Below are positions 13,445 to 29,771 of a DNA stretch of 60,445 nt, piece after piece. Made by a program: the position numbers and the translations under genes. Numbering within the stretch: position 1 is the first letter of the stretch; every line of letters starts with the position of its first letter. Source of the DNA: Patescibacteria group bacterium (GTDB lineage: Bacteria; Patescibacteriota; Patescibacteriia; JAXHNJ01); NCBI GenBank assembly GCA_043812155.1, contig JBDRMK010000009.1:1-60445 (forward strand), given 5' to 3'. Below the pieces are notes generated by a model. It saw nothing but the letters and a program-made list of their open reading frames with translations. It did no database searches and was not told the origin of the DNA.

Positions 13445-14593
13445 ATGATTAAATACCGGAATAATAATTTAGCCACCTGGGTTGAAATTGATAAATCAGC
13501 TCTTTTGCATAATCTGGATCAGTTCATCAGATTAGCGGGGAAAGGGGTTAAAATCTGCCCTATTATTAAGTCTTTTGCCTATGGCCATGATATGGCTCAG
13601 GCGGCAAAAACTCTTCAAAATCAGCCGATTTGGGGCTTTGGCGGGGTCAATTTGGAGGAGGCCTTGTTATTGCGGCGGGACGGGATAAAAAAGCCTATTT
13701 TGGTCTTAAGTTACGCTAACGCGGATCTGGCCGCCGGTATAAAGCAAAATATCATTTTTTCCGTTTATTCCCTGGCTTTTGCCGAGAAATTAAACCGGTT
13801 AGGCCAGAAACTAAAAAAACAGGTTAAAATTCATGTGAAGGCGGACGTGGGGACCTCGCGCCTCGGGCTTATGCCTCGCAATCTCCCGCTGTTTATTAAA
13901 AAATTACATAAATTAAAATATATTAAAATTGACGGGTTATTCGCCCATTTCGCGGATTCGGAAAACCAGAATTGGAACTTTACTCTTAAGCAATTGGCTC
14001 TATTTAAAAAAATCATTATTCTGGCGGAAAAAGCCGGCCAAAAAATTCCGGTTAAGCATATCGCTTGTTCGGCCGCCGCCTTGGGAAGCAAAGAGACGCA
14101 TTTTAACCTGATCCGGCTCGGCCTTTCTCTTTACGGGCTTTGGCCATCGGAGAGTACCCGGCGGCGGGCCTTAAATAAACATAAATGGTTTTCCTTGAAA
14201 CCGGCTCTTTCCTGGCAGACAAAAATAATCCAAATAAAAATTCTGCCTAAAAATTCCCGGATCGGTTACGGCGGAACATATAAGGCAAATAAGAAAATAA
14301 AAATAGCGGTTTTGCCGGTCGGGTACTACGAAGGCTATGACCGCCGATTGTCAAACAAAGGCGAGGTTTTGATCAAAGGCCGGCGCTGCCCGGTCTTAGG
14401 CCGCGTCTGCATGAACATGATTATGGTCGATGTTTCAAAGATCAATAATATAAAAACAGGGGATAGAGCGACTTTGATCGGCAAGCAGAAGAATAAAGAG
14501 ATAACCGCTGATGAGCTGGCCAAAAAAATCGGCACCATTAACTACGAAGTGGTGGCCAGAATTAATCCTTTAATCCCACGAGTCTATGGCTAA
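13445..14593 (+). CDS. alr: alanine racemase
   Basis: IIKSFAYGH (PLP lysine), IGYGG, VGYYEG, GRVCMN. Confidence 0.93.
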
Positions 14594-15698
14594 AAAAATA
14601 AGAGTCGGAGTGATCTTCGGCGGCCGTTCCGCGGAGCACGAGGTTTCCCTGGTTTCCGCCGCTTCGGTCATTTCCGCCTTGGATCAAAAAATATACGAAG
14701 TGATCCCGATCGGCATCACCAAACAAGGCCAGTGGCTGGTCGGCGAGCCTCTGAAAGCCTTGAAATCCGGAAATTTAAAACAGGTGAATCCGGTGACGCC
14801 GCCGACCAATGTCTTGCAGAAAGGACTGGTTAGAGCCGAGAAAAAGGCCAGGACTTTAGCGATCGACGTTTTTTTTCCGGTTTTGCACGGCCCATACGGC
14901 GAGGACGGCACTATTCAGGGTTTGCTTGAATTGACCGATATCCCTTACGTCGGGGCCGGCGTTTTGGCATCCGCTTTAGGCATGGATAAAGTGGCACAAA
15001 AACAGCTTTATGAGCAGGCCGGGATTCCCACTCCAAAATTCATATTTTTCCATCAATCGGACTGGCGCAAAGATCGTAACAAAATCATTAAACGGATAAA
15101 AAAGGAAATTGGATTCCCGTGTTTCATAAAACCGCCGAATTTAGGCTCTTCCGTCGGCATTTCAAAGGTCCGGCAGGAAAAGGATCTTATTAAGGCGATA
15201 AAGATGGCTTTCCGCTATGACCTTAAGGTGATCGTGGAAAAAAGCGTGGAAGAAGCCCGGGAAATAGAAATTTCCGTCTTAGGGAATGACCAGCCGCGAG
15301 TCTCCCTTCCCGGCGAGATCGTGCCTTCAAACGAATTCTACGATTATGAGGCTAAATACATCGACAACCGGTCAAAAGCCGTTATTCCGGCCAAGCTCCC
15401 GAAAACAGTTATAAAAAAAATTCAGGCCTACGCCCTAGCCGCCTTTAAACTGTTAAATATTTCGGGCATGGCCAGAGCGGATTTTTTAGTAGAAAAAAAA
15501 GGCTTTAAAATATATTTGAACGAGATCAACACAATTCCCGGCTTCACTTCCATTTCCATGTATCCGAAGCTCTGGCAGGCTTCCGGCTTGGATTACGCGG
15601 ATCTGATTTCTGAACTGATAAGATTGGCCAGGGAAAGGAACCGGCAAAAAAAAGCCTTGCAGACCTCTTACCGGCCGAAAAAAAATTGGTATAAGTAA
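14586..15698 (+). CDS. ddl: D-alanine--D-alanine ligase
   Basis: [34 protein letters not shown]. Confidence 0.96.
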
Positions 15699-15700
15699 TT

Positions 15701-16738
15701 ATGCGTTTCAACCCTTTTCGCAAACGAAGAACGGTCAAAGGTTTTGCCGCCCCCAAAAGGGTCTTTAAGAACCCGTTTTTCAGCCGGGAGAATTTCAGCG
15801 ACGTGCTGTTCCGGACCTTAAAAATCCATTACGGCCTGATAATTCTTTTGACTTTCGGCCTTTTATACTTGATATTTTTTTCCGAGATCTTCCAGATCCG
15901 CTTCATTGTCGTCAAGGGAGCGGTTAAAGTGCCGGCCGAGACCATTGAAAGCTATGTTAGGGAAGAGCTTTCCGGCCAGCGCCTTGGTTTTTTGCCTCAA
16001 TCAAACTATTTCTTTCTGGATGAAAAATCTGTGAGGGAAAAGGTCAGGGAAAAAATCCAAGCCACAATTGGCCTGGAAGAATACTCGCTCGACAAGCGTT
16101 TTCCCCGGACGGTCTCTGTCCGCTTAAAAGAGACAATACCCTCCTTAACCTGGAAAACCGGAAGCGATTATTATTACCTGGATAAAAGCGGAATCGTGGC
16201 TCAAAGCGTGGCCGAAGAAGAAGTGGATAAAAATTTCCCCTTAATTGAGGATCTGAATAATTTGTTGACCGCGCCCCAGGAACAGACGGTCAGTCCTCAA
16301 TGGCTTGCGTCAATCCCGGAAATAACCAAGGATCTAGGCGATAATAACCTGGCTTTTGACCATTTTCTAGTGCCGGTTGTCCGCTGTTATTCGCCGGAAT
16401 TGCCTGTCAGTACCGATGAAGAGATCACTCTTAACGCGAATGGCAATCTGAATGAAAATACCAACGCCGAGATTGACGATAATGAAAATTTGAACCTGAA
16501 TTTAAATGATAATATTAACGCGAGCGCTCCCGAATGCCGGCTTAAGGATGAGCTGAAAAAATTAACGCGGATAGATGTCTTGATGAAAGATGGCTATCAA
16601 ATATATCTGGCTACTGACCGGAACATCGCGGTCCAGATAAATAATCTGAACCTGGTGCTCACCACCAAATTAAAGGGAAAAACCTCAACCTTAAAATATA
16701 TTGATTTAAGATTTGATAACCGGATCTATTACCAATGA
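15701..16738 (+). CDS. ftsQ: FtsQ/DivIB-like POTRA protein with an Asn-rich insertion
   Basis: Single TM, KRFPRTVSVRLKE, C-terminal YIDLRFDNRIYY; downstream of ddl. Confidence 0.65.
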   Translation: MRFNPFRKRRTVKGFAAPKRVFKNPFFSRENFSDVLFRTLKIHYGLIILLTFGLLYLIFFSEIFQIRFIVVKGAVKVPAETIESYVREELSGQRLGFLPQSNYFFLDEKSVREKVREKIQATIGLEEYSLDKRFPRTVSVRLKETIPSLTWKTGSDYYYLDKSGIVAQSVAEEEVDKNFPLIEDLNNLLTAPQEQTVSPQWLASIPEITKDLGDNNLAFDHFLVPVVRCYSPELPVSTDEEITLNANGNLNENTNAEIDDNENLNLNLNDNINASAPECRLKDELKKLTRIDVLMKDGYQIYLATDRNIAVQINNLNLVLTTKLKGKTSTLKYIDLRFDNRIYYQ

Positions 16739-18012
16739 ACTATTTCGTTTTAGCCTTATTCATTATTACTTATATTTTTCTTGTCTGGGGCAGGATCAAT
16801 AAGCTTCTGGTGGTTGGGGTTTCCGCCGGACTCCTGATCTTTACCCGGATCATAAGCCTTCCCCAGGCCTTTGATTTCGTCAATTGGAACGTGATCGCTA
16901 TTTTTGTCGGCATGCTGGTCTTGGCGGACATGTTCATTGATTCGCGCGTCCCGGCCTATCTGGCTCGGGCCCTGGCTTCCAAGGCAAAGACCACGGCTTT
17001 GGCCTTTATTTTTATCTGCGCTTTGACCAGTTTTATTTCCGCTTTCGTGGAAAATGTGGCCACGGTCCTGATCATCGCGCCGATCGCTATTTCTTTGGCC
17101 CGGCATTTGAATATCAAGGTGGCCCCGTTTCTCATCGGCATTGCCATCTGCTCCAATCTGCAGGGGACGGCCACCCTGGTCGGCGACCCGCCGAGCATGA
17201 TCCTGGCCGGCTGGGGAAAAATGACCTTTAACGATTTTTTTTGGTTCAACGGCCGGCCGGGAATTTTTTTCGCGGTTCAGATCGCAGCTGTTGTTTCATT
17301 TGTCGTCCTTTATATAATTTTTCGCAAACATCGCCGCGGAGTCGGGGAGCTTGAAGGCGTCCATGTCAATTCCTGGGTGCCGACCTGGCTCATAATTTTG
17401 CTTATCGTCTCACTGGCCTATGCTTCTATTTACGGCCGCCAATATTACTATATTACCGGCATTATCACCCTTATTTTTGCTTTGTTCGGCCTTTTATGGA
17501 AGCTGCTGCGCGAAGGCTACGGTTCCCTCTCCGGCCTTTTAAAACCCCTGGATTGGAATACCAGTTTTTTTCTCCTTTGTATATTTGTCATTGTCGGCAG
17601 CTTGACTCCGGCCGGCGTGATCGATAAATTAACCGAAGTTATGAAATCCCTGACCGGCTCCAATGTATTCCTGACCTACTCGATCATTATGTGGTTTTCT
17701 GTCATCGCCTCCGCCTTTATAGACAATGTGCCCTATATATTAATGATGCTGCCGGTGGCTATGGGTCTGGCCAGCCATTTAGGCGTCAGTCCGTATCTTT
17801 TTTATTTTTCTCTCTTGATCGGAGCTTCCGTCGGTGGTAATATTACCCCGATCGGCGCCTCGGCCAACATCGTCGCGGTCGGACTGGCCAAAAAGAAAGC
17901 GGACGAAAAAATCAGCTTCTGGGAATTCGTAAAGATCGGCCTGCCTTTTACCTTGTCGGCGGTCACCGCCGCCTGGATTGTCGGCTGGTTCTTCTGGCGG
18001 TATCTGATTTAA
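16735..18012 (+). CDS. ArsB/NhaD/P-permease family anion or ion transporter
   Basis: About 11-12 TM segments; SAFVENV, GTATLVGDPP, SAFIDNVP, GGNITPIGASAN. Confidence 0.85.
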   Translation: MNYFVLALFIITYIFLVWGRINKLLVVGVSAGLLIFTRIISLPQAFDFVNWNVIAIFVGMLVLADMFIDSRVPAYLARALASKAKTTALAFIFICALTSFISAFVENVATVLIIAPIAISLARHLNIKVAPFLIGIAICSNLQGTATLVGDPPSMILAGWGKMTFNDFFWFNGRPGIFFAVQIAAVVSFVVLYIIFRKHRRGVGELEGVHVNSWVPTWLIILLIVSLAYASIYGRQYYYITGIITLIFALFGLLWKLLREGYGSLSGLLKPLDWNTSFFLLCIFVIVGSLTPAGVIDKLTEVMKSLTGSNVFLTYSIIMWFSVIASAFIDNVPYILMMLPVAMGLASHLGVSPYLFYFSLLIGASVGGNITPIGASANIVAVGLAKKKADEKISFWEFVKIGLPFTLSAVTAAWIVGWFFWRYLI

Positions 18013-18092
18013 AATTTCTTTTTTTGATCGCGGGCACAGCGGCCCGCGCTGTCCAATTAGCCATTTAACTAACCAGCCAATCAACTAACAAC

Positions 18093-18464
18093 ATGCAATA
18101 TACTCAAAAAGTTCTAAGTCACTTCCAAAACCCCCATAACTTGGGACGGATAGAAAACGCTGACGGAGTCGGTGAAGTGGGCAATCCGGTCTGCGGCGAC
18201 ATCATGAAGCTCTACATTAAGGTCAAAGACGATAAGATCACGGAAATTAAATTTGAAACTCTGGGCTGCGGCGCGGCTATTGCCACTTCGTCCATGATCA
18301 CAGATTTAGCCCGGGGCAAAACAATAAAGGAAGCCAAATTGATCTCCCGGGAAGACGTTGCCTCTGAATTAGGCGGTCTGCCGCCGGTCAAGATGCACTG
18401 CTCCAATTTGGCGGCCGAAGCCCTGGCCAAGGCCATCAAGGATTACGAAAGCCGAAAAAAATAA
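18093..18464 (+). CDS. nifU: Fe-S cluster scaffold NifU/IscU
   Basis: GNPVCGD, GCGAAIA, KMHCSNLA. Confidence 0.92.
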   Translation: MQYTQKVLSHFQNPHNLGRIENADGVGEVGNPVCGDIMKLYIKVKDDKITEIKFETLGCGAAIATSSMITDLARGKTIKEAKLISREDVASELGGLPPVKMHCSNLAAEALAKAIKDYESRKK

Positions 18465-18480
18465 ACATCATGAATAAATT

Positions 18481-19614
18481 ATGAAAAAATTCTTATTTTT
18501 AAGTGTCAGTCTATTTTTATTATTTTTTCTTTCCAGCTGCGCCAAAAAAGACGTATCCGTAGATACCGGCGATAAAGACAAAAATAATATCTTGGCGGAA
18601 CAGATTGACATTAACAACCGTTTCGGCTGGCTGGGCGGGGACGAGAACAGTTTTAATTACGTCTCCGGCCAGGGCGGCGGCTGGGTCAGGCCGCATCCGG
18701 GCCCCATGGTCTGGGACATGATGCAAAATAAAGAAAACCAGGCAATAGATTTCACCAATATGGACAGTATTGTCAAGGCCTCCCAGGCTTACGGCATAAA
18801 TTTACTGATCACGATCTGGCCCTTTGCCAACTGGGACCAGATGAAAAGAAGCGATGCGTCCGCCTGTCAGGTCTCTTCAGATGACGAATTTTTGCCCCAA
18901 AACGACAAAAAAGGCCGCGATTCCTACCTGCCTTTATATAGATGCAATCCTTCTGATTGGGATACTTATAAGAATTTTGTCTCCCAGGTAGTGGAAAGAT
19001 ACGACGGGGACGGCATAGGTGACTACGAGAGGCTGCAATACCCGATAAAATATTGGGAAGTTATGAACGAGCCGGATCTTTCCGGGGGTATGGGTCTGGA
19101 TTTTTACAAACAGGGTTATTCGGAGTACGCCGAACCTCTTAAAAATACTTATGAAGCGGTCAAAGCCGCGGACGCCACCGCCCAGGTCCTGATCTCCGGG
19201 GCGGCCGGAGGGGATACGCGTTTTATAAGTTTTTATGAGAATATGTTAAAAGCCGATGCCACTCTGGCTAATTATTTTGACATCGCCAATATCCACTGCA
19301 TTTCCAATGACCGCAGCACCAATTCTTTCAACGTCGTGCCCTATAAACAGATGCTGCTGAGGAACGGGATTGATAAGCCTCTCTGGGTCACGGAAGCGGA
19401 AATGATGACCGGCCAGACCTTAGAGGATAACGCGAAAACAACAGCGGAAAACGTGAAAGGCGCTTTGGCGGCCGGCGCCGCCAAGATATTTTTCACCCGT
19501 TACGACTTCGCCGACACCCGCACGGATATGAGCCAAAAATTCGAGCCGACCAAGCAGGAGCAGGAAGAAAGCGACGAATCGTACCGCGATATTATCAAAT
19601 CATACAATAATTAA
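18481..19614 (+). CDS. clan GH-A glycoside hydrolase-like lipoprotein (GH5/GH39-like)
   Basis: Lipobox LSSC; WEVMNEPD acid/base and LWVTE nucleophile motifs. Confidence 0.7.
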   Translation: MKKFLFLSVSLFLLFFLSSCAKKDVSVDTGDKDKNNILAEQIDINNRFGWLGGDENSFNYVSGQGGGWVRPHPGPMVWDMMQNKENQAIDFTNMDSIVKASQAYGINLLITIWPFANWDQMKRSDASACQVSSDDEFLPQNDKKGRDSYLPLYRCNPSDWDTYKNFVSQVVERYDGDGIGDYERLQYPIKYWEVMNEPDLSGGMGLDFYKQGYSEYAEPLKNTYEAVKAADATAQVLISGAAGGDTRFISFYENMLKADATLANYFDIANIHCISNDRSTNSFNVVPYKQMLLRNGIDKPLWVTEAEMMTGQTLEDNAKTTAENVKGALAAGAAKIFFTRYDFADTRTDMSQKFEPTKQEQEESDESYRDIIKSYNN

Positions 19615-20424
19615 ATGGGAAAAAACCGGCCAAAAATCGGCCTCGCCCTGGGCAGCGGGGGGTTTCGGGGACTGGCTCATATCGGCGTCATTAAAGTCCT
19701 GGAAAGAAACAATATCCCGATTGATTATATCGCCGGCTCCAGTATCGGCGCCCTGATCGGTGCTTTTTACGCTGACTGCCGGGATATCAAAAAAATTGAA
19801 GAAATTGCCTTAAAAACCGACTGGAAAATGGGTGTTTCCATTTTTGATCTGGGCCGGCATGGAGGATTGGTCAAAGGCAAAAAGATTGAAAATTTAATTA
19901 AAAAATGGCTCGGCCACACCTGTTTTGAGCATATAAAAATTCCTATTGGCGTAGTCGCAACTGACCTTTCCACGGGCCAGGAGCTTGTCGTGACAAAAGG
20001 AAATCTGGTCAAGGCGATCCGGGCCAGTTTTTCCGTACCCTTGATTTTTGAACCGATCGTCTTTCAGGGCAAATTACTGGCGGACGGCGGGTTAGTTGAT
20101 CCGGTCCCGGACGGAGTGGTTAAAAATATGGGGGCGGACAAGGTCATCGCCGTTAATTTAGAAAACGGCAACTTTAAACAGGCCCTGCACCGGAAAAAAG
20201 TCTCTTTTTTAAAAGTCGCCTTAAGATCGTATAATATCCTGGCCTGGCATTTGGCGGAAACTTCCATGAGTGAAGCGGATGTCATTATTTCCCCCGAAGT
20301 CGGCGGCGACGATATCGTCGGCTTCGGCAAATTTTTTGACCATAAGAACGTAAAAAAGATCATCCGGACCGGTGAAATAGCCGCGGAGAAAGAGTTGCCG
20401 AAAATAAAAAAACTTGTGTTTTGA
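19615..20424 (+). CDS. patatin-like phospholipase (RssA family)
   Basis: GSGGFRG, GSSIG nucleophile elbow, DGG. Confidence 0.9.
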   Translation: MGKNRPKIGLALGSGGFRGLAHIGVIKVLERNNIPIDYIAGSSIGALIGAFYADCRDIKKIEEIALKTDWKMGVSIFDLGRHGGLVKGKKIENLIKKWLGHTCFEHIKIPIGVVATDLSTGQELVVTKGNLVKAIRASFSVPLIFEPIVFQGKLLADGGLVDPVPDGVVKNMGADKVIAVNLENGNFKQALHRKKVSFLKVALRSYNILAWHLAETSMSEADVIISPEVGGDDIVGFGKFFDHKNVKKIIRTGEIAAEKELPKIKKLVF

Positions 20425-20446
20425 TTTATTAAGATTTTATAAAAAT

Positions 20447-20479
20447 AAAAATCCCCTCGACTTGACAGAAGAGGGGATT
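20447..20479. terminator. hairpin between convergent genes
   Basis: aatcccctc...gaggggatt inverted repeat with an A-run on the left. Confidence 0.55.
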
Positions 20480-20501
20480 ATCTTGGTTACATAGGCAGTT
20501 T

Positions 20502-20912
20502 TCAGGCCGCCTGGCGGAGATAAGTGCGACGTTTAGCCTGAAGCCAGGAAAGATGGGCAAGAAGGTCGGTTTTCAGGACACGGACGGACTGGTAATAGTC
20601 GTCAATTTGAATATCGAATGCTAACCGGCTCTTACCCCGATAAGTGACCCGGATAGGACCGAACCAACCGCTTATCTGGCCGTTTGTTTCGCCCGTAACC
20701 AGAAGGTTGTGGGCTTTAAGACTGATGATTTTGTGATCAAAGTCTCCCTGAAAAAAATGCGTTTCCGCGCCGGGTATTCTCTCCTCCTTGCTATAGGGCC
20801 GGATAATCACTCGTCCGGTCCGTTCAATCTGACAGCATAGACTGACACAACCAAAAGCGTTTAGTACCGGGCAAAAAGTGGTGGCGACGACTTTACCCAG
20901 CATCTTGGACAT
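20502..20912 (-). CDS. hypothetical protein
   Basis: 136-aa ORF with GGAGGTG SD upstream, TTGACT-type promoter near 21000 and a downstream hairpin. Confidence 0.65.
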   Translation of the reverse strand: MSKMLGKVVATTFCPVLNAFGCVSLCCQIERTGRVIIRPYSKEERIPGAETHFFQGDFDHKIISLKAHNLLVTGETNGQISGWFGPIRVTYRGKSRLAFDIQIDDYYQSVRVLKTDLLAHLSWLQAKRRTYLRQAA

Positions 20913-21025
20913 CTCACACCTCCAGTTTTTGATGTTTTAAAAAAAATGATCAGCTGATTGATTCGTGCCCGTATCTTATTTTAAAAGAAGAAAATAGTCA
21001 AGATTTATAATATATCGATTACATA

Positions 21026-21072
21026 TTTTGCGACCCATAGGATTTGACATATAATTGGAGATAATATAAAGT
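21026..21072 (+). promoter_or_regulatory. conserved unit-head motif copy 1 plus sigma70 promoter
   Basis: TTTTGCGACCCATAGGATTTGAC (21026-21048); TTGACA-17-TAAAGT. Confidence 0.75.
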
Positions 21073-21102
21073 GTAAAGTTCGCTAGTAAAAGGAGGCCTT
21101 GT

Positions 21103-21282
21103 ATGTGGCACACGATAGTTCCTTATCTGCTTTTTGGCGGGGGACTCGCAGGCTTAATAACGGCCCTGGTCATTCATATTATGATTAGGAGGAGGTCCCA
21201 GAAGACGGAGTTTTGGGGCGACGCAAGATTCTTTTTTCTCGCCGTCGGTTTCCTGCTGATCGCGACCTGGTTTATCCGGTGA
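21103..21282 (+). CDS. small two-TM membrane protein (59 aa, absent from the ORF track)
   Basis: AAGGAGG SD; MWHTIVPYLLFGGGLAGLITALVIHIMIRRRSQKTEFWGDARFFFLAVGFLLIATWFIR*; followed by a terminator. Confidence 0.75.
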   Translation: MWHTIVPYLLFGGGLAGLITALVIHIMIRRRSQKTEFWGDARFFFLAVGFLLIATWFIR

Positions 21283-21302
21283 ATCACCCCGTTTTCTTTT
21301 TC

Positions 21303-21337
21303 ATTAGGCTGTCCCCTCGGATAGCCTAATTTATTTT
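21303..21337 (+). terminator. intrinsic terminator of unit 1
   Basis: attaggctgtcc-cctc-ggatagcctaat followed by ttatttt. Confidence 0.7.
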
Positions 21338-21385
21338 GCGATCACATATATATAGATTGACTTTATCAATAAAAGAGCTTAAGAT
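21334..21385 (+). promoter_or_regulatory. unit-head motif copy 2 (variant) plus promoter
   Basis: TTTTGCGATCACATATATATAGATTGAC; TTGACT-17-TAAGAT. Confidence 0.65.
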
Positions 21386-21421
21386 GTTTAACTAACAGGT
21401 TCTTTAAAAAAAGAGGTGCCC

Positions 21422-21754
21422 ATGGTAAAGATAATTGTCTTTTTCGTGCTATCAGTCATTTGTCTCATGTTAGCTGAGAGGTGGCGGAGATTAGCCACAT
21501 ATTTTTTTGATTATAGGTTCCCTTGGAACGCTTCTGTTCGCCAGCGAATGAAAAAGCTTAAGAAATCGCTCAAGGAGGCAAAAAAGAAGAAGTACAAAAG
21601 TGACCTGGATAAGTTCATACATGGCCCCTTTCAGATCCAATTCAAACACAGCCATTTTTTTAAGTATGATCGGTTAAAAAGGATCGCCTTCACGTTTGCT
21701 CTGATCTGTTTGGCAATTACGATCATTCTTGTTTACCAGAGATATGCGGGTTGA
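21422..21754 (+). CDS. small two-TM membrane protein with a lysine-rich loop
   Basis: Hydrophobic N- and C-terminal helices, basic loop; GAGGTG SD (GTG at 21416 is an alternative start). Confidence 0.65.
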   Translation: MVKIIVFFVLSVICLMLAERWRRLATYFFDYRFPWNASVRQRMKKLKKSLKEAKKKKYKSDLDKFIHGPFQIQFKHSHFFKYDRLKRIAFTFALICLAITIILVYQRYAG

Positions 21755-21783
21755 CTGATAAGCCGTCTTTCAAAGGGGGAATC

Positions 21784-22005
21784 ATGAACGTCAAAGAGGT
21801 GCTATTAATCGTCTTGGCAAGTCTGGGTCTTCTTAGCGGCCTCGTAACGGTCATTCTGCTCGAAATGACCAGCCGGAAGATAAAGAGGGAGATAGATTTC
21901 AATTGGATAAATCCAGATGCAATTAAGAAAATCAATTGGACCAGAACACTTACTTGCATAACTATCACCCTTTTAGGCTTCATTCTCTTCTTTCTTCTAA
22001 CGTAA
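21784..22005 (+). CDS. small two-TM membrane protein
   Basis: AAGGGGGA SD before ATG 21784; two hydrophobic helices. Confidence 0.7.
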   Translation: MNVKEVLLIVLASLGLLSGLVTVILLEMTSRKIKREIDFNWINPDAIKKINWTRTLTCITITLLGFILFFLLT

Positions 22006-22047
22006 GAAATGGGGGAATGGCTCGGGAAGCTGGAAAAAAGATTAGCG

Positions 22048-22078
22048 GGCTGCGTCAGCTAGGACGCGGCCTTTTTTT
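22048..22078 (+). terminator. intrinsic terminator of unit 2
   Basis: ggctgcgtc-agctag-gacgcggcc followed by T7. Confidence 0.75.
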
Positions 22079-22089
22079 ATAAAATAGAT

Positions 22090-22136
22090 TTTTGCGACAC
22101 ATAGGATTTGACTTAAATAATATATTTATATAATAT
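22090..22136 (+). promoter_or_regulatory. unit-head motif copy 3 plus promoter
   Basis: TTTTGCGACACATAGGATTTGAC (22090-22112); TTGACT-17-TAATAT. Confidence 0.75.
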
Positions 22137-22171
22137 AAAGTTAAATTTGTCGTTCCTTGAAGGGGGTTGAT

Positions 22172-22366
22172 ATGTTCAGTATAAAGAATCTAATATGGCT
22201 GATGGCGTTAGTCTTTTTGGCCTTAAGCCTCGGCTGGGGGATTGCCGGGTTTGTCTACCGGAAAAGAACTCCAGTATTGAAAGCATATAATGCGTCGGCT
22301 AATGCCGTAGGCTTATTGATCATTTCTCTTTTTCTGATGTGGATAGCCCATAAGTTCTTTCCGTGA
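22172..22366 (+). CDS. small two-TM membrane protein
   Basis: AAGGGGG SD before ATG 22172; two hydrophobic helices with an RKR loop. Confidence 0.7.
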   Translation: MFSIKNLIWLMALVFLALSLGWGIAGFVYRKRTPVLKAYNASANAVGLLIISLFLMWIAHKFFP

Positions 22367-22398
22367 AATTATATTTTTGTCGGTCCTATTTCTTACGG

Positions 22399-22425
22399 GG
22401 CTGTCCCTCTCGGGCAGCCTTTTTT
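22399..22425 (+). terminator. intrinsic terminator of unit 3
   Basis: ggctgtcc-ctctc-gggcagcc followed by T6; homologous to the terminator at 21303. Confidence 0.75.
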
Positions 22426-22426
22426 A

Positions 22427-22473
22427 TTTTGTGACACATGGATTTGACGACATACCTTATTATGTAATAAGAT
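22427..22473 (+). promoter_or_regulatory. unit-head motif copy 4 plus promoter
   Basis: TTTTGTGACACATGGATTTGAC (22427-22448); TTGACG-18-TAAGAT. Confidence 0.7.
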
Positions 22474-22529
22474 AATTAACCCGATAAGAACTATTTATTG
22501 ACTACCAGCTTCTTGAAGGAGGTTATCGC

Positions 22530-22784
22530 ATGTCACCGACACAAATAGGAGCTCTTTGTTCTTTATTTGGCTCGGCCCTTTGTTTAGTGGTTTCTGTCGT
22601 TCTTTGGCAGTTAGTCCTGCCTTTCGCCGGCAGACAGCTGTTCGAAGAGGAGACAGGGGAGGTTCGGCCCAAGATTACGACATACCCGACCGAAAAGAAA
22701 GCGGTTCGACGATTCATCGGGTGTCTTCTGATCAGCGCCGCGATTCTCATCGTTCTTTCCATATATCTCTTTTATAGAAAATAA
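22530..22784 (+). CDS. small two-TM membrane protein
   Basis: AAGGAGG SD; two hydrophobic helices. Confidence 0.72.
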   Translation: MSPTQIGALCSLFGSALCLVVSVVLWQLVLPFAGRQLFEEETGEVRPKITTYPTEKKAVRRFIGCLLISAAILIVLSIYLFYRK

Positions 22785-22798
22785 GACAGCCTCATAAT

Positions 22799-22829
22799 AA
22801 CAGGTCCTCCCCCGAGTGACCTGTTTTTT
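22799..22829 (+). terminator. intrinsic terminator of unit 4
   Basis: aacaggtc...gacctgtt followed by a T-run. Confidence 0.7.
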
Positions 22830-22882
22830 CTTAGGGGAGTAGCATCTTGACGTATTTTGGCTATAGGTTTAAAATGAATAGA

Positions 22883-22910
22883 GAGTCATATAATATAGGT
22901 TAAGCGCCCC
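22883..22910. other. candidate dif-like Xer recombination site
   Basis: GAGTCATATAA-TATAGG-TTAAGCGCCCC has 11-6-11 architecture with a TAA-N6-TTA core; it lies between the TTGACG-17-TAAAAT promoter (22847-22875) and the first xer gene. Confidence 0.4.
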
Positions 22911-22925
22911 AAGAGTGTCTATTTT

Positions 22926-23900
22926 ATGAACAAATCTAATAAACCCATAATTAGCCATATTCCCGATTACCTTGAGTTTTGCGAGGTGGAAAAGGGATTA
23001 GCTAATCTTTCCGTAAAAAATTACGACGAATTTTTAGTACCTTTTAAAAAGTGGCTTCAAAAGAATAACCTGACTCGGTTATTGCCTCATGAGTTAACTA
23101 AGCAGCATATCTGGGACTTTCGGCCGTTTCTTTCCCGGTTTGTGATAGTTAATACCAAAAAGAACCTGCAAAAAACGACCCAGAACTATTATTTGATCGC
23201 CCTAAGGGGACTTTTATCCTATTTCGCGGAAAAAGACATCACTTCCCTGCCCCCGGAGAAAATTAAACTAAGCAAGAAAAACAAGAGCCGGGTGATTAAA
23301 TTTTTGTCTCTTGACCAGATTGAAAAACTTTTGATGGCTCCTGACCTTACTAATATAATCGGTTTGCGTGACCGTGCCATCCTAGAAACTCTTTTCAGCA
23401 CGGGTTTACGTGTTACTGAGCTTATAAACCTTAATCGAGACCAGATTAACCTGGAATTATTGCGAAAAAATCGGAATAAAGACATGGAGTTGGTCATTGT
23501 CGGAAAAGGCAATAAACCCAGAACAGTTTACCTGTCAGAGAGGACAATTGAGTGGCTGATCAAGTTTCTCGAGAAAAGAAATGATAATGATCCGGCTTTA
23601 TTCATAAATGTCTTAAAAAATAAATCCACGCAGTCAAAACGTCTGACTTCTCGTTCAGTTGAGAAAATGATCAAAAAGTATTGTAAAATACAAGGTCTGC
23701 CGATTACCACTACTCCGCACACCATAAGACATTCATACGCCACAGATTTATTAGAACAAGGTGTTGACTTGCGCACCATTCAGGAATTCTTGGGCCATCA
23801 AAATATCGTTACCACTCAAGTCTATACTCATGTCACTAATAAACATCTACGAGACGTTCATAGAGCCTTTCATAGCGGAAATAAGCTAAAAAACGAGTGA
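22926..23900 (+). CDS. tyrosine recombinase, XerC/XerD family
   Basis: RDRAILETLFSTGLRVTEL, GKGNK, PHTIRHSYAT, LGH..TTQVY: complete R-K-H-R-H-Y set plus N-terminal core-binding domain. Confidence 0.93.
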   Translation: MNKSNKPIISHIPDYLEFCEVEKGLANLSVKNYDEFLVPFKKWLQKNNLTRLLPHELTKQHIWDFRPFLSRFVIVNTKKNLQKTTQNYYLIALRGLLSYFAEKDITSLPPEKIKLSKKNKSRVIKFLSLDQIEKLLMAPDLTNIIGLRDRAILETLFSTGLRVTELINLNRDQINLELLRKNRNKDMELVIVGKGNKPRTVYLSERTIEWLIKFLEKRNDNDPALFINVLKNKSTQSKRLTSRSVEKMIKKYCKIQGLPITTTPHTIRHSYATDLLEQGVDLRTIQEFLGHQNIVTTQVYTHVTNKHLRDVHRAFHSGNKLKNE

Positions 23901-23904
23901 TTAT

Positions 23905-24432
23905 ATGAATAACAATTTACCTTGGCATGAAGTAGAAAAATCTATTCATAAAGAAATTACTTGGTTAAAAAACGTTGTTGACACCCAGGAAAACCTAAAT
24001 TTTCTTTTTGCGCCCGAGCAAGTGGACAAATGGACTTCGTACTATTTTATTTATCGTTTAATAGCCATTGCCATTGTACGAGGAGATGTTAAAGCGAGAG
24101 AAATAAATGCGAAAAATAACCAAGATTTATGGGATAATTTGACAAAAACTTTTACCGAACCCATAAAAGCAAAACATGGACAGGATTGGCATAAAAGAAT
24201 GATCGACATATTAGAAAAGTATTTTACTGAGCAAGATTACGAAGTATCCATTGAACCGAATTTATTTCACGGCCGTGCAGATTTAGGAATACACAAAAAT
24301 GGCAAGAAAAACATCTATGTTGAAGTGGGAAAAACGTCTATTTATAAATTGTGCGTAAATTTACTTAACATGAAAGAGTGCATCATCTTATTGGTTCCGC
24401 AGAATAACAAAGCGATAGAATTTGAATTATAA
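23905..24432 (+). CDS. hypothetical protein, possible PD-(D/E)XK-fold nuclease
   Basis: IEPNLFHGRADLGIHKNGKKNIYVEVG resembles an E...AD...(V)EV restriction-endonuclease-like core; AT-rich. Confidence 0.5.
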   Translation: MNNNLPWHEVEKSIHKEITWLKNVVDTQENLNFLFAPEQVDKWTSYYFIYRLIAIAIVRGDVKAREINAKNNQDLWDNLTKTFTEPIKAKHGQDWHKRMIDILEKYFTEQDYEVSIEPNLFHGRADLGIHKNGKKNIYVEVGKTSIYKLCVNLLNMKECIILLVPQNNKAIEFEL

Positions 24433-24436
24433 TAAT

Positions 24437-25372
24437 ATGCTTCCCCTATTCAAAGAATATATTTCATATTTAAACACAAAAATCTATTCCAAAGAAACCG
24501 TTTACAATTACGAAAGAGATTTGAAAGTCTTTGAAGAATTCCTGCAGGAGATGGGTCTCCCCTGGAAAAAGCTCAATCGGAGGGCCATTGAACAATACAA
24601 GGCCTATTTGACCTCCATTGACCGAAAAACGGCCCAGAACGCCAAAATAGAGGCTAAATTGGGCTCTTACAGCATTAATCGCATGCTTTCAAGCCTTAGA
24701 TCTTACCTCAAGTACTTAATTGATAATGAATACGAAACACCCATTTCACCGGAAGTGGTGAAGCTGACTAAGACAGAGAAAAAACACCCCAGAGTCGCGG
24801 AACTCCAGGACTTGATCCGCTTAATTGAATCCCCTGCTGTTTTTGAAAAAAACAAGGAAGTGATTTTGCGCAACCGCGCCATGCTGGAAGTTTTATTTTC
24901 CACTGGCTTGCGCATCTCGGAGCTGACCAATCTTAACCGCGACCAGATTGATAATTCCGGCAAGATCTTTGTCATGGGCAAAGGGAAAAAAGAAAGATTC
25001 GTTTATCTGACCGAGAGAGCCAAAGAACATCTGAAAAACTATCTAAATACCAGAAAAGACAATTCCCCTAGCCTATTCATCCCCTACCGCGGCTCGGCGG
25101 TCAAAACCACGCACCGAAGAATTTCCATAAATTATATTCAGGAAAGAATAAAAAGATACCGGGAGCTTTTAAAAATAAACGTACCAACGTCAGCCCATAG
25201 TTTAAGACACGGCTTTGCCACATATTTAGCCGAATCCGGCGCCAATCCCGCGGCAATTCAAATATTACTAGGCCATGAGTCGTTAGATACGACAACTCGT
25301 TATGTTCATGCCTCTGATAGATATGCAGAAGAGACAATGAAAAAATTTCATCCGTTAAAAAATAAGCAATGA
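24437..25372 (+). CDS. tyrosine recombinase, XerC/XerD family (second copy)
   Basis: RNRAMLEVLFSTGLRISEL, GKGKKER, HSLRHGFAT, LGHESLDTTTRY. Confidence 0.93.
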   Translation: MLPLFKEYISYLNTKIYSKETVYNYERDLKVFEEFLQEMGLPWKKLNRRAIEQYKAYLTSIDRKTAQNAKIEAKLGSYSINRMLSSLRSYLKYLIDNEYETPISPEVVKLTKTEKKHPRVAELQDLIRLIESPAVFEKNKEVILRNRAMLEVLFSTGLRISELTNLNRDQIDNSGKIFVMGKGKKERFVYLTERAKEHLKNYLNTRKDNSPSLFIPYRGSAVKTTHRRISINYIQERIKRYRELLKINVPTSAHSLRHGFATYLAESGANPAAIQILLGHESLDTTTRYVHASDRYAEETMKKFHPLKNKQ

Positions 25373-25803
25373 TAAATTTTAGCGTTAATCAGCCGGAAAA
25401 AGATAAAAAATATTTTCAGCGTATCGGAGCATACGTCATTATTATTAATGACAATTTATTGGCGACCGTAAAAACAAAAACAGGTTATTTTTTACCGGGT
25501 GGCGGACTGGAAAAAAATGAATCTCCGGAAAATTGCTTAGTTAGGGAATGTCTGGAAGAAATAGGAATAAAGATCAAAGTAATTAAAAAAATCAGCCAAG
25601 GCAATTATTACTTTTTTTCCACCACGAAACAGACGGATATGGAAAATATCGGCCATTTTTATGAAGGAAAAATTGAAAGCGTTATAAACGTTCAGACCGA
25701 AAAAGACCATGAATTAATCTGGTTAGAGCCAAAAAAGGCGATAACATGGTTATATCTGAAAAATCAACAAGAAGCGGTCCGACTTTTCTTAAATAATAAT
25801 TAA
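25369..25803 (+). CDS. NUDIX hydrolase
   Basis: Nudix box GGGLEKNESPENCLVRECLEEIG. Confidence 0.9.
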   Translation: MINFSVNQPEKDKKYFQRIGAYVIIINDNLLATVKTKTGYFLPGGGLEKNESPENCLVRECLEEIGIKIKVIKKISQGNYYFFSTTKQTDMENIGHFYEGKIESVINVQTEKDHELIWLEPKKAITWLYLKNQQEAVRLFLNNN

Positions 25804-25820
25804 TAACGGTTCTTAGACTA

Positions 25821-25920
25821 AAACAGGCCGAAAGGGCCCTTTTTGTTAAATAATAAATCCAAAATTCTAAATTCTAAACAAATTCGAAATTCGAAATTTC
25901 AAGCACGACTATCCCCTACT
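25821..25920 (+). repeat. composite intergenic element copy A
   Basis: ggccgaaagggcc hairpin, tttttgttaaa, an AAATTC/AAATCC-like tract, then cacgactatcccctact; same order recurs at 27279-27392. Confidence 0.7.
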
Positions 25921-25994
25921 CTTAAATTATAACTAAAGAAGAACCCCGCAGAAGGCTGCAGGGTTCGTTGGGAACGTGTTGATTCGAATCAGAA

Positions 25995-27119
25995 TTATTC
26001 GCCAGGCGGCGGCAAGGTGATACCTTCGGGCTCGAAGATGACCTTTCTTTCCCCTTCCTCGACCCGGCCGAGATCAATGAGATCGTAGCCGGCTGGCTTG
26101 GCCATGGCGATGGCGACTTCCACTTCGCTTTCCGGCACGTAAATATAGTAGCCGATGCCCCAGTTGAAGGTAGTCAGGCAGTCTGACAGAGTTACGCCGA
26201 GCTGGCGCATGAAGAGGAAAATCTGGGGAATCTCATCCACCCATTTGCTGATGCGATACGTGAACGGCCGGTGGTCGAAAGCGATCTTGGCCACGCCGCT
26301 GCCGGTGCCAGGCAACAAAGCGTGAATGTCCACGCCGGCGTCAAGCAAAGCCTCAACCAAGGCCACGTAGGAACGTGTGGGTATCAGGGCGTGCTCACCC
26401 AGGGTTCGGCCGTCGGGCAGAAGAGTGAGGAATTTCTCCGGAAGAGTCATGGCCCGCCTGATTACCAGTGAAATGCCGTTGGCATGGATGCCGGTGGAAG
26501 GCGCGCCGAGGATGTGGTCCCCCGCGCAGAGCTTTTCTCCGCTTATCAGCCGGCTGGACGGTGCGATGACGCCGGTAGTGCAGCCGGAAAAAGACGGGGC
26601 GCTTTTGACCGGCGGCGCGGCTTTGATAAGATAGACCAGCGAGGGCGACTCTCCGGCCACGACCGCAATGCCATCCTGGAAGCAAAGCTCCAGCATGCCG
26701 ACCGTCAAAGCCTGGCTTCTTTTTTCGTCCAAAAACCAGTCGCTGTCGCCGGCCGCCACCTCGTCGGTGTAAATCGCCGGCATAGCGCCCTGAGCGATGA
26801 GATCGTTGATCGCCATCAGCATGGTGTCCCACATGATGTACTCGTAGAAAGTCCTGCCCGTGCCCGAAAACTGATACATCCATTCGGCGATCCAGTTCTT
26901 GTTGCCAAGGCCTTCCGTGGTCTTGCACCAGATGTGGGGTAAATCGCCTCGATACTCGAAGACCCCGCCGTGGCTGTGGAGCAGAGACTCCTTGACGTAG
27001 AACCCGCGCCAGTTGGGACACCCGAGGGTCCTCCGACAGGCCTCGATCATGATACGTTTGAAAGGTTCGATCTTGCGGTAATCCACCGCTTGCGCGTATT
27101 CAGAACCTCCCTGTTTCAT
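25995..27119 (-). CDS. purM: AIR synthase (PurM)-like protein, divergent and orphan
   Basis: TEGLGNK, MAINDLIAQGA, AGESP, GDHILGAPSTGIHANGISL, PTRSY, TFNWGIG align with PurM motifs; AGGAGG SD. Confidence 0.7.
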   Translation of the reverse strand: MKQGGSEYAQAVDYRKIEPFKRIMIEACRRTLGCPNWRGFYVKESLLHSHGGVFEYRGDLPHIWCKTTEGLGNKNWIAEWMYQFSGTGRTFYEYIMWDTMLMAINDLIAQGAMPAIYTDEVAAGDSDWFLDEKRSQALTVGMLELCFQDGIAVVAGESPSLVYLIKAAPPVKSAPSFSGCTTGVIAPSSRLISGEKLCAGDHILGAPSTGIHANGISLVIRRAMTLPEKFLTLLPDGRTLGEHALIPTRSYVALVEALLDAGVDIHALLPGTGSGVAKIAFDHRPFTYRISKWVDEIPQIFLFMRQLGVTLSDCLTTFNWGIGYYIYVPESEVEVAIAMAKPAGYDLIDLGRVEEGERKVIFEPEGITLPPPGE

Positions 27120-27821: not shown

Positions 27822-28685
27822 TTAAATTTTCGAAGAAATTAGAGCGCCGGAATGCGTAACCCGGTCGATCAGTTCTTCAATAATCGAACCCATATCCGCT
27901 TCTGATCTGGAATCAAAGCCGATATGAGTATAAAAGCACTGCTGATGGTCAAAGAAAATGATCGGCTGGCCGGACAGTTTCAGATACCACTCCATAAAAT
28001 CCGGGGAAAGGATCTGATAAGCGATCTTCGCCTGGTCAGTGTGAACCAGGGTTTTTTTATTGAATTCCACGCTCTCCAGGTCAATATCGCGGCCGATGGT
28101 CGGCCCGTTGACTCTCTGCAGGATCAGCCGGCCGGGAAACTCTTTCGGAAAATTCACCCGGGCCTGCATGATCCGGAATTGGCCGGTCATTTGGGCCTGG
28201 CCGCTTGCGGCCGGCGAGTTTATTTTATGGACAAATACCCGTTTGCCAAAAGGCGCGGAAATAGCCGGTCGGGCCGGCCCGGCGGGCATCGCTTCTTCAG
28301 GCATAAAGTTGATCTGGAAAATTTGATAATTTACCCCCTGCTTTGTCCCCTGTCCCATTTTCTTGGGCCAGATCTTCGGCTGCCGGCTGAAAAATCGGAT
28401 CATTTCCCCCAGGCCGGGAAAAATATCAGCGAAAGAAAGCGCTTCGCCTTCCTGCCAGGACCAGACTTTAGGCGACAAAACCAGGTTTGACTGGCCCAGC
28501 TGGCGCATTCCCTTAAAGACAGAGAAGAACCGGCCGGCGGAGCGCGCAAACATTATACAGACAAAAGCGATGATAACGGGATAAATAACGTAATCAGGCA
28601 AATGGCCATGGCTAAAATAGCCGGCGATGATTAAAATAATGAAGATTAAGAAGAAAATAACATCCTTATCTGATCTTGCTCGCAT
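27822..28685 (-). CDS. membrane protein with a DUF3137-like domain
   Basis: Two N-terminal TMs; LESVEFNKK..HTDQAKIAYQILSPDFM motif; start placed at the ATG after the upstream gene's stop. Confidence 0.6.
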   Translation of the reverse strand: MRARSDKDVIFFLIFIILIIAGYFSHGHLPDYVIYPVIIAFVCIMFARSAGRFFSVFKGMRQLGQSNLVLSPKVWSWQEGEALSFADIFPGLGEMIRFFSRQPKIWPKKMGQGTKQGVNYQIFQINFMPEEAMPAGPARPAISAPFGKRVFVHKINSPAASGQAQMTGQFRIMQARVNFPKEFPGRLILQRVNGPTIGRDIDLESVEFNKKTLVHTDQAKIAYQILSPDFMEWYLKLSGQPIIFFDHQQCFYTHIGFDSRSEADMGSIIEELIDRVTHSGALISSKI

Positions 28686-28702
28686 AATAATCGATTTAAT
28701 TA

Positions 28703-29170
28703 TTATTCCAATAAATCTTCCGGCGTCACCCATTTCCCATTCGGCACGCTGTTGCAGGCGGCGGCGGCGTAAGCCACGGATTCATCGGTATAGCCTCCAG
28801 AGCCTTCACTGTAAGCCCAGGCGATTGATTCCATGACAGAGCCGCCATTCATCTGGCAGCCGCCGAATTCGGAATAAGGGCAGGCGTTCAGGGAAAAAGT
28901 CCGGCTTTCTCCGCAATTTAATTTGGCGGAGTCGCTGTCATTCCACATGGAACCGACATAATCAATACAATTGCTGGAATTAACAATGTCATTGCAGCTG
29001 GCATAAACCTTTCTCGGGCCGGTTTCTTTTAAGCCTTCAGTCACTTGCTCCAAGTCCGTATTTTCGTCCACGCCTGTCTCTTCCGGCAGATTTTCCGTCC
29101 GTCCGGCTAAAAAGTAATAACCCAGGGCCCCGACCCCTAAAACCAGGATAACGATCAATACTTTGGTCAT
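28703..29170 (-). CDS. membrane-anchored Cys-rich hypothetical protein
   Basis: N-terminal TM anchor, acidic linker, six Cys in the external domain. Confidence 0.7.
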   Translation of the reverse strand: MTKVLIVILVLGVGALGYYFLAGRTENLPEETGVDENTDLEQVTEGLKETGPRKVYASCNDIVNSSNCIDYVGSMWNDSDSAKLNCGESRTFSLNACPYSEFGGCQMNGGSVMESIAWAYSEGSGGYTDESVAYAAAACNSVPNGKWVTPEDLLE

Positions 29171-29432
29171 AAATGTCTTTTAAATAATAAATATGTTTTT
29201 ATTATAACACTTTAGGTAAAAAATAAAAAAATCCCGGCTTGGTTGGATTTGTTGCTCTTTCTGACAGCAGAAAGAACCAAAGACTGCTGGGGGCTTCAAT
29301 TTTTTTGTTACTAACATCTTATTTGTATTCTGACCCCCGTGGGTACAAAAAGGAAGCCCCCAGACCCCAGTATGCTAAAGGATTTAGTTTCTGCTAATTG
29401 TTTTTCTTTGAGGCGCCACAAAGTTTGTTCTC

Positions 29433-29693
29433 TTATTTCCGGTATTTACGATAAGCGAGCAGATAAGCCGGGATCAGAAAAATAATAAAATCTAATATCA
29501 AATAAAGGGGCCTGAAGACATCGGCCATTGGACCACCGATCATGTAAGAGCCTTCCTGAAAATACCAAAAAGGCAGACCCCATTTATGCGGCATGTCCGT
29601 GGCATGCCCTAAAGTCGAAAAAATGTAGCCTAAGAAGAGGAATATAAGGGTGTTTGAAAGGGTTAAAATAATTCTTTTGCGCCGGATATTCAT
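29433..29693 (-). CDS. small membrane protein
   Basis: Two TMs with a WGLPFWY loop; TATAAT 6 nt before ATG. Confidence 0.6.
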   Translation of the reverse strand: MNIRRKRIILTLSNTLIFLFLGYIFSTLGHATDMPHKWGLPFWYFQEGSYMIGGPMADVFRPLYLILDFIIFLIPAYLLAYRKYRK

Positions 29694-29771
29694 GCTTCAA
29701 TTATACCTTTTACCTCAAGAATAAAAAAGCGGCTCTGACCCCCGCGGGCAAGGCACTCATGTAATTTAAAT

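Follow-up and report, generated by a model that had tools for sequence, protein, structure and literature searches.

A tandem array of small two-helix membrane protein genes upstream of a conserved xer gene in a Patescibacteria genome

A 60,445-nucleotide contig of a Patescibacteria group bacterium (GenBank assembly GCA_043812155.1, contig JBDRMK010000009.1), referred to here in its full length as the window, contains a tandem array of small genes at positions 21026–22829. The array consists of four units, all on the forward strand, each with a short conserved sequence (the box), a sigma-70-like promoter, a strong Shine-Dalgarno (SD) sequence, one or two small open reading frames (ORFs), and a hairpin terminator. 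The five ORFs (P1 to P5) encode proteins of 59–110 aa, and the array lies upstream of xer2, the conserved Xer-family recombinase gene of this lineage. In the interpretation that we favour, and rate as modestly probable, the locus is a tandem array, confined to the family and variable in copy number, of autonomous small-membrane-protein genes that have a common regulatory module and are located in an insertion hotspot beside xer2. The genome under study (G000) comprises 1,140,755 bases in 31 contigs, the array contig being C9, and its family is represented by three further genomes: G001 of the same genus, G002 of another genus, and G003 of a third. These designations, together with those of loci (Lnnn) and public relatives (Pnnnn), are labels of this analysis.

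The box consensus within the array is TTTTGYGAYMC, and its TTTTGYGAY portion starts at 21026, 21334, 22090, and 22427. In unit 1 the first copy (TTTTGCGACCCA, 21026–21037) is followed, 18 nt from its start, by a TTGACA-17-TAAAGT promoter (21044–21072, located like the other promoters by pattern scan), then by P1 (59 aa, 21103–21282) and by terminator T1 (21303–21330), a 12-bp stem including a G-U pair with a T-run that extends into the second box. Unit 2 has a variant box, TTTTGCGATCAC, and a TTGACT-17-TAAGAT promoter (21357–21385; 21334–21385 with the box) whose -35 starts 23 nt from the box start, 5 nt more distant than usual. It encodes both P2 (110 aa, 21422–21754) and P3 (73 aa, 21784–22005), which are separated by a 29-nt gap with neither box nor terminator, P3 having its own SD, and it ends with terminator T2 (22047–22072). 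Unit 3 contains box TTTTGCGACACA and a TTGACT-17-TAATAT promoter (22108–22136; 22090–22136 with the box), P4 (64 aa, 22172–22366), and terminator T3 (22397–22421), and unit 4 contains box TTTTGTGACACA and a TTGACG-18-TAAGAT promoter (22444–22473; 22427–22473 with the box), P5 (84 aa, 22530–22784), and terminator T4 (22799–22831), a bulged stem and T-run followed by TTTTTTCTTAGGG. Across the array the box start is 17–23 nt from the -35, the -35 to -10 spacer is 17–18 nt, every unit possesses a separate terminator and a separate promoter that matches the -35/-10 pattern at 9/12 positions or more, and 4–7 nt 5′ of each ATG is an SD of the AGGAGG, GAGGTG, or AGGGGG type.

RNA folding of T1 to T4 gives -17.9, -18.8, -16.3, and -14.7 kcal/mol, values equalled by 0, 0, 0, and 3 of 200 shuffles, respectively. 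The hairpins are simple G+C-rich stems with 4–6-nt loops and a T-run after them, and because the G-U pairs in the stems form only in RNA of the forward strand they are best read as terminators. A role in RNA termination, rather than as attC recombination sites, fits these inter-ORF hairpins.

An original prediction, made from the letters of this region, had proposed four units of motif, sigma-70 promoter, SD, ORF(s), and terminator. All four are present, and the observation is real and somewhat unusual. Across the 1.14-Mb genome there are four instances of the box with TTGAC 5–16 nt downstream, all of them within the array and none at unrelated promoters; the bare 9-mer box has 54 occurrences on both strands together. 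The junction of hairpin, T-run, and box is likewise confined to the array within the genome, and a 23-mer motif allowed up to three mismatches has two matches in the window, a number reached by none of 100 shuffles. Among the 1353 ATG-initiated ORFs of 55–115 aa in the six frames of the whole genome, 17 have a hairpin layout of two hydrophobic segments, and five of these 17 are the array ORFs, within 1.8 kb.

The units resemble each other in their flanks. The box regions of units 1 and 3 are 92% identical over 26 nt, the hairpin, T-run, and box junctions preceding units 2 and 4 (S1 and S3) are 79% identical over 29 nt, and the SD regions of units 3 and 4 are 92% identical over 13 nt. No DNA similarity was found among the ORF bodies, at least 15 of 200 codon shuffles equalling the observed score in all 15 pairs, nor was significant mutual similarity accepted among the five proteins. 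Weak P2–P3 and P1–P3 protein similarities (z of 5.1 and 4.3 against whole-sequence shuffles) were rejected as derived from the transmembrane (TM) segments, because such shuffles break these segments and inflate z. The earlier claim that the proteins lack mutual similarity is thus borne out at both the DNA and protein levels, and the units appear modular, with homologous flanks surrounding unrelated ORF bodies.

Each of the five proteins has two Kyte-Doolittle hydrophobic segments reaching nearly to both termini with a charged loop between them, and the second segment extends to the C-terminus in all. The loops contain 5, 22, 7, 4, and 6 K+R residues versus 2, 6, 3, 0, and 5 D+E residues in P1 to P5, respectively; the P1 loop is basic, that of P2 is a lysine-rich stretch of 69 aa, and that of P5 has mixed charge. 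The two-helix layout with a mostly basic loop had been predicted for all five, and the two segments are indeed present throughout, but the loop of P5 is not clearly basic. Since the loops are mostly basic they are probably cytoplasmic, and the hydropathy profiles suggest that P1 to P5 are probably helical hairpins with two TM helices and almost nothing extracellular. In the public protein collection and the ESM Atlas, P2 is represented only by a 68-aa version that begins at M43 and lacks the first TM segment (TM1); the longer reading of 110 aa is preferred given the SD and ATG at 21422.

Relatives of the five proteins are scarce. When P1 to P5 were compared with Pfam, PHROGs, NCBIfam, and PADLOC, the only matches were transmembrane noise under the thresholds, with no PHROG match below an E-value of 0.01, and no paralogues were found in their own genome. 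P2 has no relative among 1.84 billion representatives, its sole match being P2 itself called from M43, and a word-indexed search of 5.8 billion proteins found none for P5. In 251 class genomes P3 matches its own genome and one sequence with an internal stop (E 0.0099), and P4 matches its own genome and six others (E 0.0015–0.008), all of these additional matches being at chance level. The best ESM Atlas scores for P2 and P5 (0.88 and 0.89) are under the 0.9 lead level, and an Imm17 cluster in that search, at 0.75, is at chance level.

P1 is the only array ORF with a relative elsewhere, P0006, which is 59 aa long, 73% identical, and encoded on a 13.5-kb contig. The loop (RRSQK.EFWGDARFFF) and N-terminus are invariant between the two and substitutions occur only in the helices, a pattern of conservation that argues for P1 being a real gene under constraint. 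A P1 profile run against 401 class genomes matches its own genome and one site antisense within a 335-aa ORF that is PheS-like by eye. No relative of P1 to P5 was found in another lineage, the contig of P0006 not being placed in any lineage. The G+C content at third codon positions (GC3) of the small ORFs is 0.49–0.63 compared with 0.54–0.59 in the neighbouring host genes, so that the small ORFs look resident.

All four family genomes have a box upstream of xer2, with differing contents. There are four units (five ORFs) in G000, one in G001, one with an additional two-TM ORF in G002, and one decayed unit in G003; boxes and units correspond in number (4/4, 1/1, and 1/1 in the first three), and G003 has one box and a remnant consisting of an SD, an ATG, and two codons. 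The G001 locus has the same flanks as G000, including homologues of orf377, a patatin gene, and orf136 on one side, and on the other an xer2 that is 88% identical at the DNA level and 94% at the amino acid level. Between them is a single unit with box TTTTGCGACACA at L021:8385 (the positional counterpart of the first G000 box), a TTGACG-17-TAAAGT promoter, a GGGAGG SD, a 99-aa two-TM ORF unrelated to P1 to P5, a hairpin terminator, TTTTTTCTTAGGG as found after T4 in G000, and the xer2 promoter. The promoter of this G001 unit and the unit 3 promoter region of G000 (22080–22176) share 70% identity over 100 nt, and the G001 terminator is 84% identical over 31 nt to T3, which is homologous to T1 as well. 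In G002 a hairpin, box, and TTGACA-17-TAGTAT promoter precede a two-TM ORF of 88 aa; an xer-type promoter follows where the contig ends, and a further 69-aa two-TM ORF is present immediately 5′ of the box unit. In G003 the patatin gene is followed by a 580-nt A+T-rich spacer, which holds ATATTTTGCGACAC and the remnant, and then by xer2. The hairpin layout is kept in all eight such ORFs (five in G000, one in G001, two in G002), seven of which are in box units with an SD. The array is thus neither invariant nor unlinked to xer genes in its relatives: unit content differs among the four genomes and the linkage to xer2 is constant.

No box-promoter unit was found upstream of the xer2-type genes (62–70% identity) of 15 more distant genomes; at one of these 15 loci (L038) a 62-aa two-TM ORF is present 477 nt upstream of the xer2-type gene. 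The strict motif occurs at three loci in public genome contigs. L047 is on the same contig as G001, L049 is inside a coding sequence by eye, and L048, in another Patescibacteria record, has a box, a TTGACT-16-TATAAT promoter, a leader of ~110 nt, and an ORF cut by the contig end; L048 is the only convincing strict-motif site in public collections besides the G001 contig. The viral collection has one strict-motif locus, within a coding sequence, and the metagenomes have six, one being the G001 contig, four coding by eye, and one (L056) intergenic beside a tRNA. A loose form of the motif was rejected as a class-wide feature: it matches 40 of 61 class genomes, but 18 of 21 matches (20 loci inspected) lie in stop-free frames of at least 147 aa, and the pattern is therefore not meaningful outside the family. 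A surface-level literature search gave no description of such arrays in Patescibacteria.

Under the interpretation that we favour, each unit would express one or two tiny membrane proteins from its own predicted sigma-70-type promoter, SD, and intrinsic terminator, and would carry a common homologous module of terminator hairpin, T-run, 12-nt box, promoter, and 5′ untranslated region. The array may have expanded and contracted as the conserved flanks underwent unequal homologous recombination, with loss, replacement, or divergence of ORFs between lineages and possibly exchange of units. P1 appears to have changed at an ordinary rate (73% identity to P0006) and the G001 ORF is unlike all five between orthologous flanks, which suggests ORF replacement rather than divergence. 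The box, positioned 5′ of each -35 where an activator, a repressor, or an UP-like element could act, is a putative protein-binding cis element common to the units; it would be the site for one trans-acting factor, such that the units are switched together. A putatively co-regulated, diversified set of small membrane proteins was the second alternative of the original prediction, and it fits the data better than the integron-like arrangement with which it was paired, so that the interpretation offered there is partly supported overall.

The box itself is an asymmetric 12-mer. An alignment of 11 instances (the four array copies, the xer2-upstream copies of G001, G002, and G003, that of L048, and three from a second locus) conserves only 12–14 nt, (T)ATTTTGCGACAC(A/T), and reveals no second half-site. 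All four array copies are direct and on the forward strand. Boxes equal units in every genome, which fits a box belonging to each unit; integration of circles would give one box more than the number of units. The genus-restricted orf136, the divergent neighbour of unit 1 (20502–20912, reverse strand), was rejected as the box binder, as G002, G003, and the genome containing L048 (G061) have the box without orf136. Its predicted structure (pLDDT, predicted local distance difference test, of 70) has no PDB match at E ≤0.001. A public relative of orf136, P0004, is 62–63% identical and encoded on a 2.8-kb contig.

Several features weigh against this interpretation. The distances from box to -35 (17, 18, 18, 19, 23, and 29 nt) are unusual for an activator with fixed geometry. 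A second box locus, conserved in three genera (G000:C17:189271, G001:C1:115217, and G002:C4:2276), has the box directly after the stop codon of a gene for an 84-aa one-TM protein, with no obvious promoter, and the G003 box has no live ORF; it is therefore possible that the box has no promoter role. Plain duplication leaves the dissimilarity of the G001 ORF unexplained, and the function that we suggest below for P1 to P5 takes their topology as its one source. About 130 nt beyond the box at the second locus there is a perfect 16-nt palindrome, TGTTCCACGTGGAACA, and then a tRNA-Arg gene (G000:C17:189271–189420; L118 2771–2920; L066, L067). The palindrome has a single perfect copy in the genome, and the arrangement is kept in G001 and G002. 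TGTTCCACGTGGAACA is parS-like.

Downstream of the array a promoter-like site (TTGACG-17-TAAAAT, 22847–22875) precedes three genes on the forward strand: xer1 (22926–23900), orf175 (23905–24432), which has no family match, and xer2 (24437–25372). The array is transcribed toward the recombinase genes and ends 97 nt before xer1, in keeping with the ~100 bp predicted, but the two Xer genes are separated by the 175-aa ORF instead of being directly adjacent. Domain profiles identify a Phage_integrase catalytic domain (PF00589, E 1.6e-38 in xer1 and 6.9e-34 in xer2) and an N-terminal SAM-like domain (PF02899, E 3e-06 and 2e-12), and both proteins, which are 34% identical to each other, are thus Xer-family tyrosine recombinases. 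They remain below the XerC/XerD equivalog level, xer1 scoring 224.2 bits (XerD, cut-off 329.6) and xer2 204.8 bits (XerC, cut-off 335.15).

The two recombinase genes appear to differ in age. The xer2 protein is the conserved Xer of the lineage, 94% identical within the genus and 62–70% in the 15 more distant genomes. No counterparts of xer1 or orf175 were found in G001, G002, or G003, and their GC3 is low (0.43 and 0.33), which together indicate that this pair is a later, G000-specific insertion between an old xer2 promoter and xer2. A tandem pair of recombinase genes is hence not conserved with the array. A weak trace of the insertion is seen in the first 32 nt of xer1, which match the start of the G003 xer2 at 81% identity. 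The closest xer1 relatives, at 52–60% identity, are widespread in other Patescibacteria records, with titles such as Parcubacteria, Nealsonbacteria, and Falkowbacteria, and a 37% identical relative of orf175 follows the xer2-type gene in L041. Tandem pairs of xer2-type and xer1-type genes are present in four of the 15 distant loci (L031, L032, L035, and L043).

The spot just upstream of xer2 appears to be ancestral for the family and to lie in a long-term insertion hotspot. In three of the 15 distant loci (L029, L030, and L042) alr, ddl, and an ORF of ~300 aa directly precede xer2, and in L041 the xer2-type gene follows a weak relative of orf345 (25% identity). All four family genomes have genes for CitMHS and IscU and further, differing genes between orf345 and xer2. 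Between IscU and xer2, G000 and G001 have orf377, patatin, and orf136, G002 has an acyltransferase, and G003 has a 153-aa ORF on the reverse strand and patatin. Compared with L029, L030, L042, L069, and L127, the accumulated set in the window (13445–25372) comprises CitMHS, IscU, orf377, patatin, orf136, the array, and xer1/orf175. Lineage specificity tends to rise toward xer2: CitMHS and IscU occur throughout the family, orf377 and orf136 at the level of the genus, the units are particular to each genome, and xer1/orf175 are found in G000 only. G000, G001, and G003 each have a different gene 3′ of xer2, the xer2 of G002 being cut at a contig end.

This gradient also suits a recombinase-dependent platform, in which Xer2 (here Xer1 and Xer2) would use the 12-nt box as the site for inserting, excising, duplicating, and exchanging small-ORF cassettes that carry their own promoters, and it is the main reason why we regard such a model as unlikely and not lower. 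A platform of this kind would be integron-like without attC or IntI, its site would differ from dif, attI, and attC, and the second box locus would be an empty secondary site. The position of the box-bounded units immediately before xer2 in every one of the four family genomes, their ORFs differing from genome to genome, the conserved flanks around unrelated ORFs, the gene content that becomes younger toward xer2 as serial insertion beside a recombinase gene would yield, and the occurrence of the box at a second conserved intergenic site are all consistent with it. The box does not have the form of a recombination site, however: no dyad surrounds it, the best 11-(6–8)-11 arrangement containing it having arms complementary at only 6–7 of 11 positions, no second half-site is seen over the 11 instances, the boxes are all direct and equal in number to the units, and the best dyads within -30/+50 nt of the boxes are matched by 90–484 of 500 shuffles. 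Moreover, xer2 is conserved without an array in the 15 more distant genomes, the small ORFs have host-like GC3, and none has a relative found in another lineage. Low-depth contig fragments from three sequencing runs show no joints in the stretch but are too thin to show absence or variability.

Integrons are the closest formal parallel, having tandem short unrelated ORFs beside a tyrosine recombinase gene, variable content, and conserved sequence between ORFs. They differ in that integron cassettes are promoterless and read from a common promoter, whereas every array unit brings its own promoter and ends in a simple intrinsic terminator. The array repeats equal the units rather than the units plus one, transcription proceeds toward the recombinase, and the recombinases are Xer-like and not IntI, with integron-integrase (TIGR02249) scores of 93.2 bits for xer1 and 74.4 for xer2 against a cut-off of 265, both scoring higher on the XerC/XerD models. 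No attC-like sites were found in the array by hairpin inspection or as an Rfam match in 20400–26100, where inclusion of an attC model is uncertain and no dedicated attC search was made. With a box lacking a second arm, boxes equal to units, no attC-like site, and Xers below the integrase cut-off, the integron-like, recombinase-driven mechanism first proposed is not supported.

Acinetobacter dif modules and integrative mobile elements exploiting Xer (IMEX) are similar to the array in containing small gene modules bounded by short repeated sites for which Xer proteins are the proposed movers (PMC13141974). The pdif sites listed there (Table 1) have a XerC arm and a XerD arm of 11 nt each on either side of a 6-nt spacer, and are alternately C/D and D/C. 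By comparison, the array box is asymmetric, 12 nt long, and lacks a partner arm, and its four copies are all direct on the forward strand rather than alternating. Strict patterns find no canonical dif in the genome, and a fuzzy search with consensus sequences gives 15 and 2 loose matches, of which that at 22883–22910, just 5′ of xer1, was judged to be at chance level. In the interpretation that, taken as a whole, we lean towards, the Xer proteins do not move the units, and nothing shows that a recombinase mobilises them.

Type I toxin-antitoxin loci provide another comparison. In the enterobacterial long direct repeats, tandem type I units share a toxin ORF and carry an antisense RNA gene, and type I toxins are single-TM proteins, mostly of fewer than 60 aa. 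The array is similar in its tandem units with their own promoters and small hydrophobic membrane proteins, and one could suppose that each peptide is a toxin checked by an unrecognised antisense RNA; strong promoters and SDs, and minus-strand promoter-like sites at 21090–21063 and 22144–22117 inside the unit 1 and unit 3 regulatory regions, agree with this. The ORFs are unrelated, though, where known type I repeats share theirs, four of the five proteins (59–110 aa overall) exceed 60 aa, and all have two TM segments and not one. Minus-strand sites are also expected in A+T-rich promoter DNA, the region containing 26 promoter-like sites versus 11.8 in shuffles, and no Rfam match was found in 20400–26100, all of which makes a toxin array very unlikely.

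Less probable again is a remnant of an integrated mobile element, either filamentous-phage-like or otherwise Xer-exploiting, with the small proteins as leftover structural or exclusion genes. The adjacent Xer genes, the foreign-looking GC3 of xer1, orf175, and the NUDIX gene (0.33), and the variation between relatives on both sides of xer2 would accord with such an origin. Against this, the ORFs scanned at 10186–37136 include neither a morphogenesis ATPase nor a replication initiator, both expected of a filamentous-phage-like prophage, nor any other family of phages or plasmids; the small proteins have no PHROG match below E 0.01 and their ORFs are host-like in GC3; the sole viral-contig motif match is inside a coding sequence; and a promoter and terminator for each gene is unlike a packed phage operon.

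Least probable is that the ORFs are non-functional, being chance or decaying frames downstream of duplicated promoters, as could be read from the four of five without any relative, the decayed G003 unit, and the public P2 call at M43 without TM1; against it are the hairpin layout kept by all eight ORFs in three genomes (seven of them in box units with an SD), the clustering here of five of the genome's 17 such small ORFs, the 73% conservation of P1 with its invariant loop, and a GC3 like that of host genes.

As to the role of P1 to P5, the proteins are almost wholly membrane-buried by prediction, which makes host contact unlikely, and our guess is that they might protect or modulate from within the membrane, for example by immunity to membrane-active toxins or exclusion of incoming DNA. 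Phage or bacteriocin immunity and superinfection-exclusion proteins are tiny and fast-evolving, often have two TM helices, and are often found in variable islands. The array proteins are likewise very small, lineage-specific, and integral to the membrane, but have no cognate toxin, bacteriocin, or phage context and no sequence or profile match to such proteins. Class II holins have two TM helices and a charged C-terminal tail and adjoin a lysis enzyme gene, whereas the array proteins end in a hydrophobic segment, have no PHROG match, and have no lysin family among the neighbours scanned.

Patescibacteria have tiny genomes, mostly cannot be grown alone, and encode a large share of small membrane proteins without a known role. 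The locus is a compact, delimited case, with autonomous units, a rare common box, number and identity varying between species, and a fixed place beside a conserved recombinase gene, and it offers handles in the 12-nt box, the promoter module, and six to eight tiny proteins. Were the box a recombination site, the array would represent a new kind of gene-capture system; were it a regulator site, it would define, in an episymbiont lineage, a small regulon of membrane proteins with fast turnover.

Some further features of these loci were noted. In G001 (L021 1916–4099) the orf345 homologue comes straight after that of alr, with no ddl match between, unlike G000, G002, and G003. Downstream of xer2 in G003 (L127 610–3814) are genes for an 858-aa P-loop protein and a 207-aa ORF without a Pfam match, converging on xer2, which may be a defence-type island. 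In the window, an A+T-rich repeat (aaattctaaattctaaac...ttcgaaattcgaaat) is present at 25840–25900 between the NUDIX gene and the next gene and matches at least 14 places in G001 at 77–89% identity. Farther downstream, on the reverse strand, are two DUF3137 proteins (27822–30503) and a 620-aa NHL-repeat protein with a Por_Secre_tail match of 37.4 bits (35274–37136). Elsewhere in the genome, two contigs start with near-identical TTTGTCGCATTTGCGATGAAAGAATGCGA... followed by a strong promoter-like site (G000:C7:98 and G000:C25:123), and these contig starts probably correspond to a repeated element at assembly breaks.

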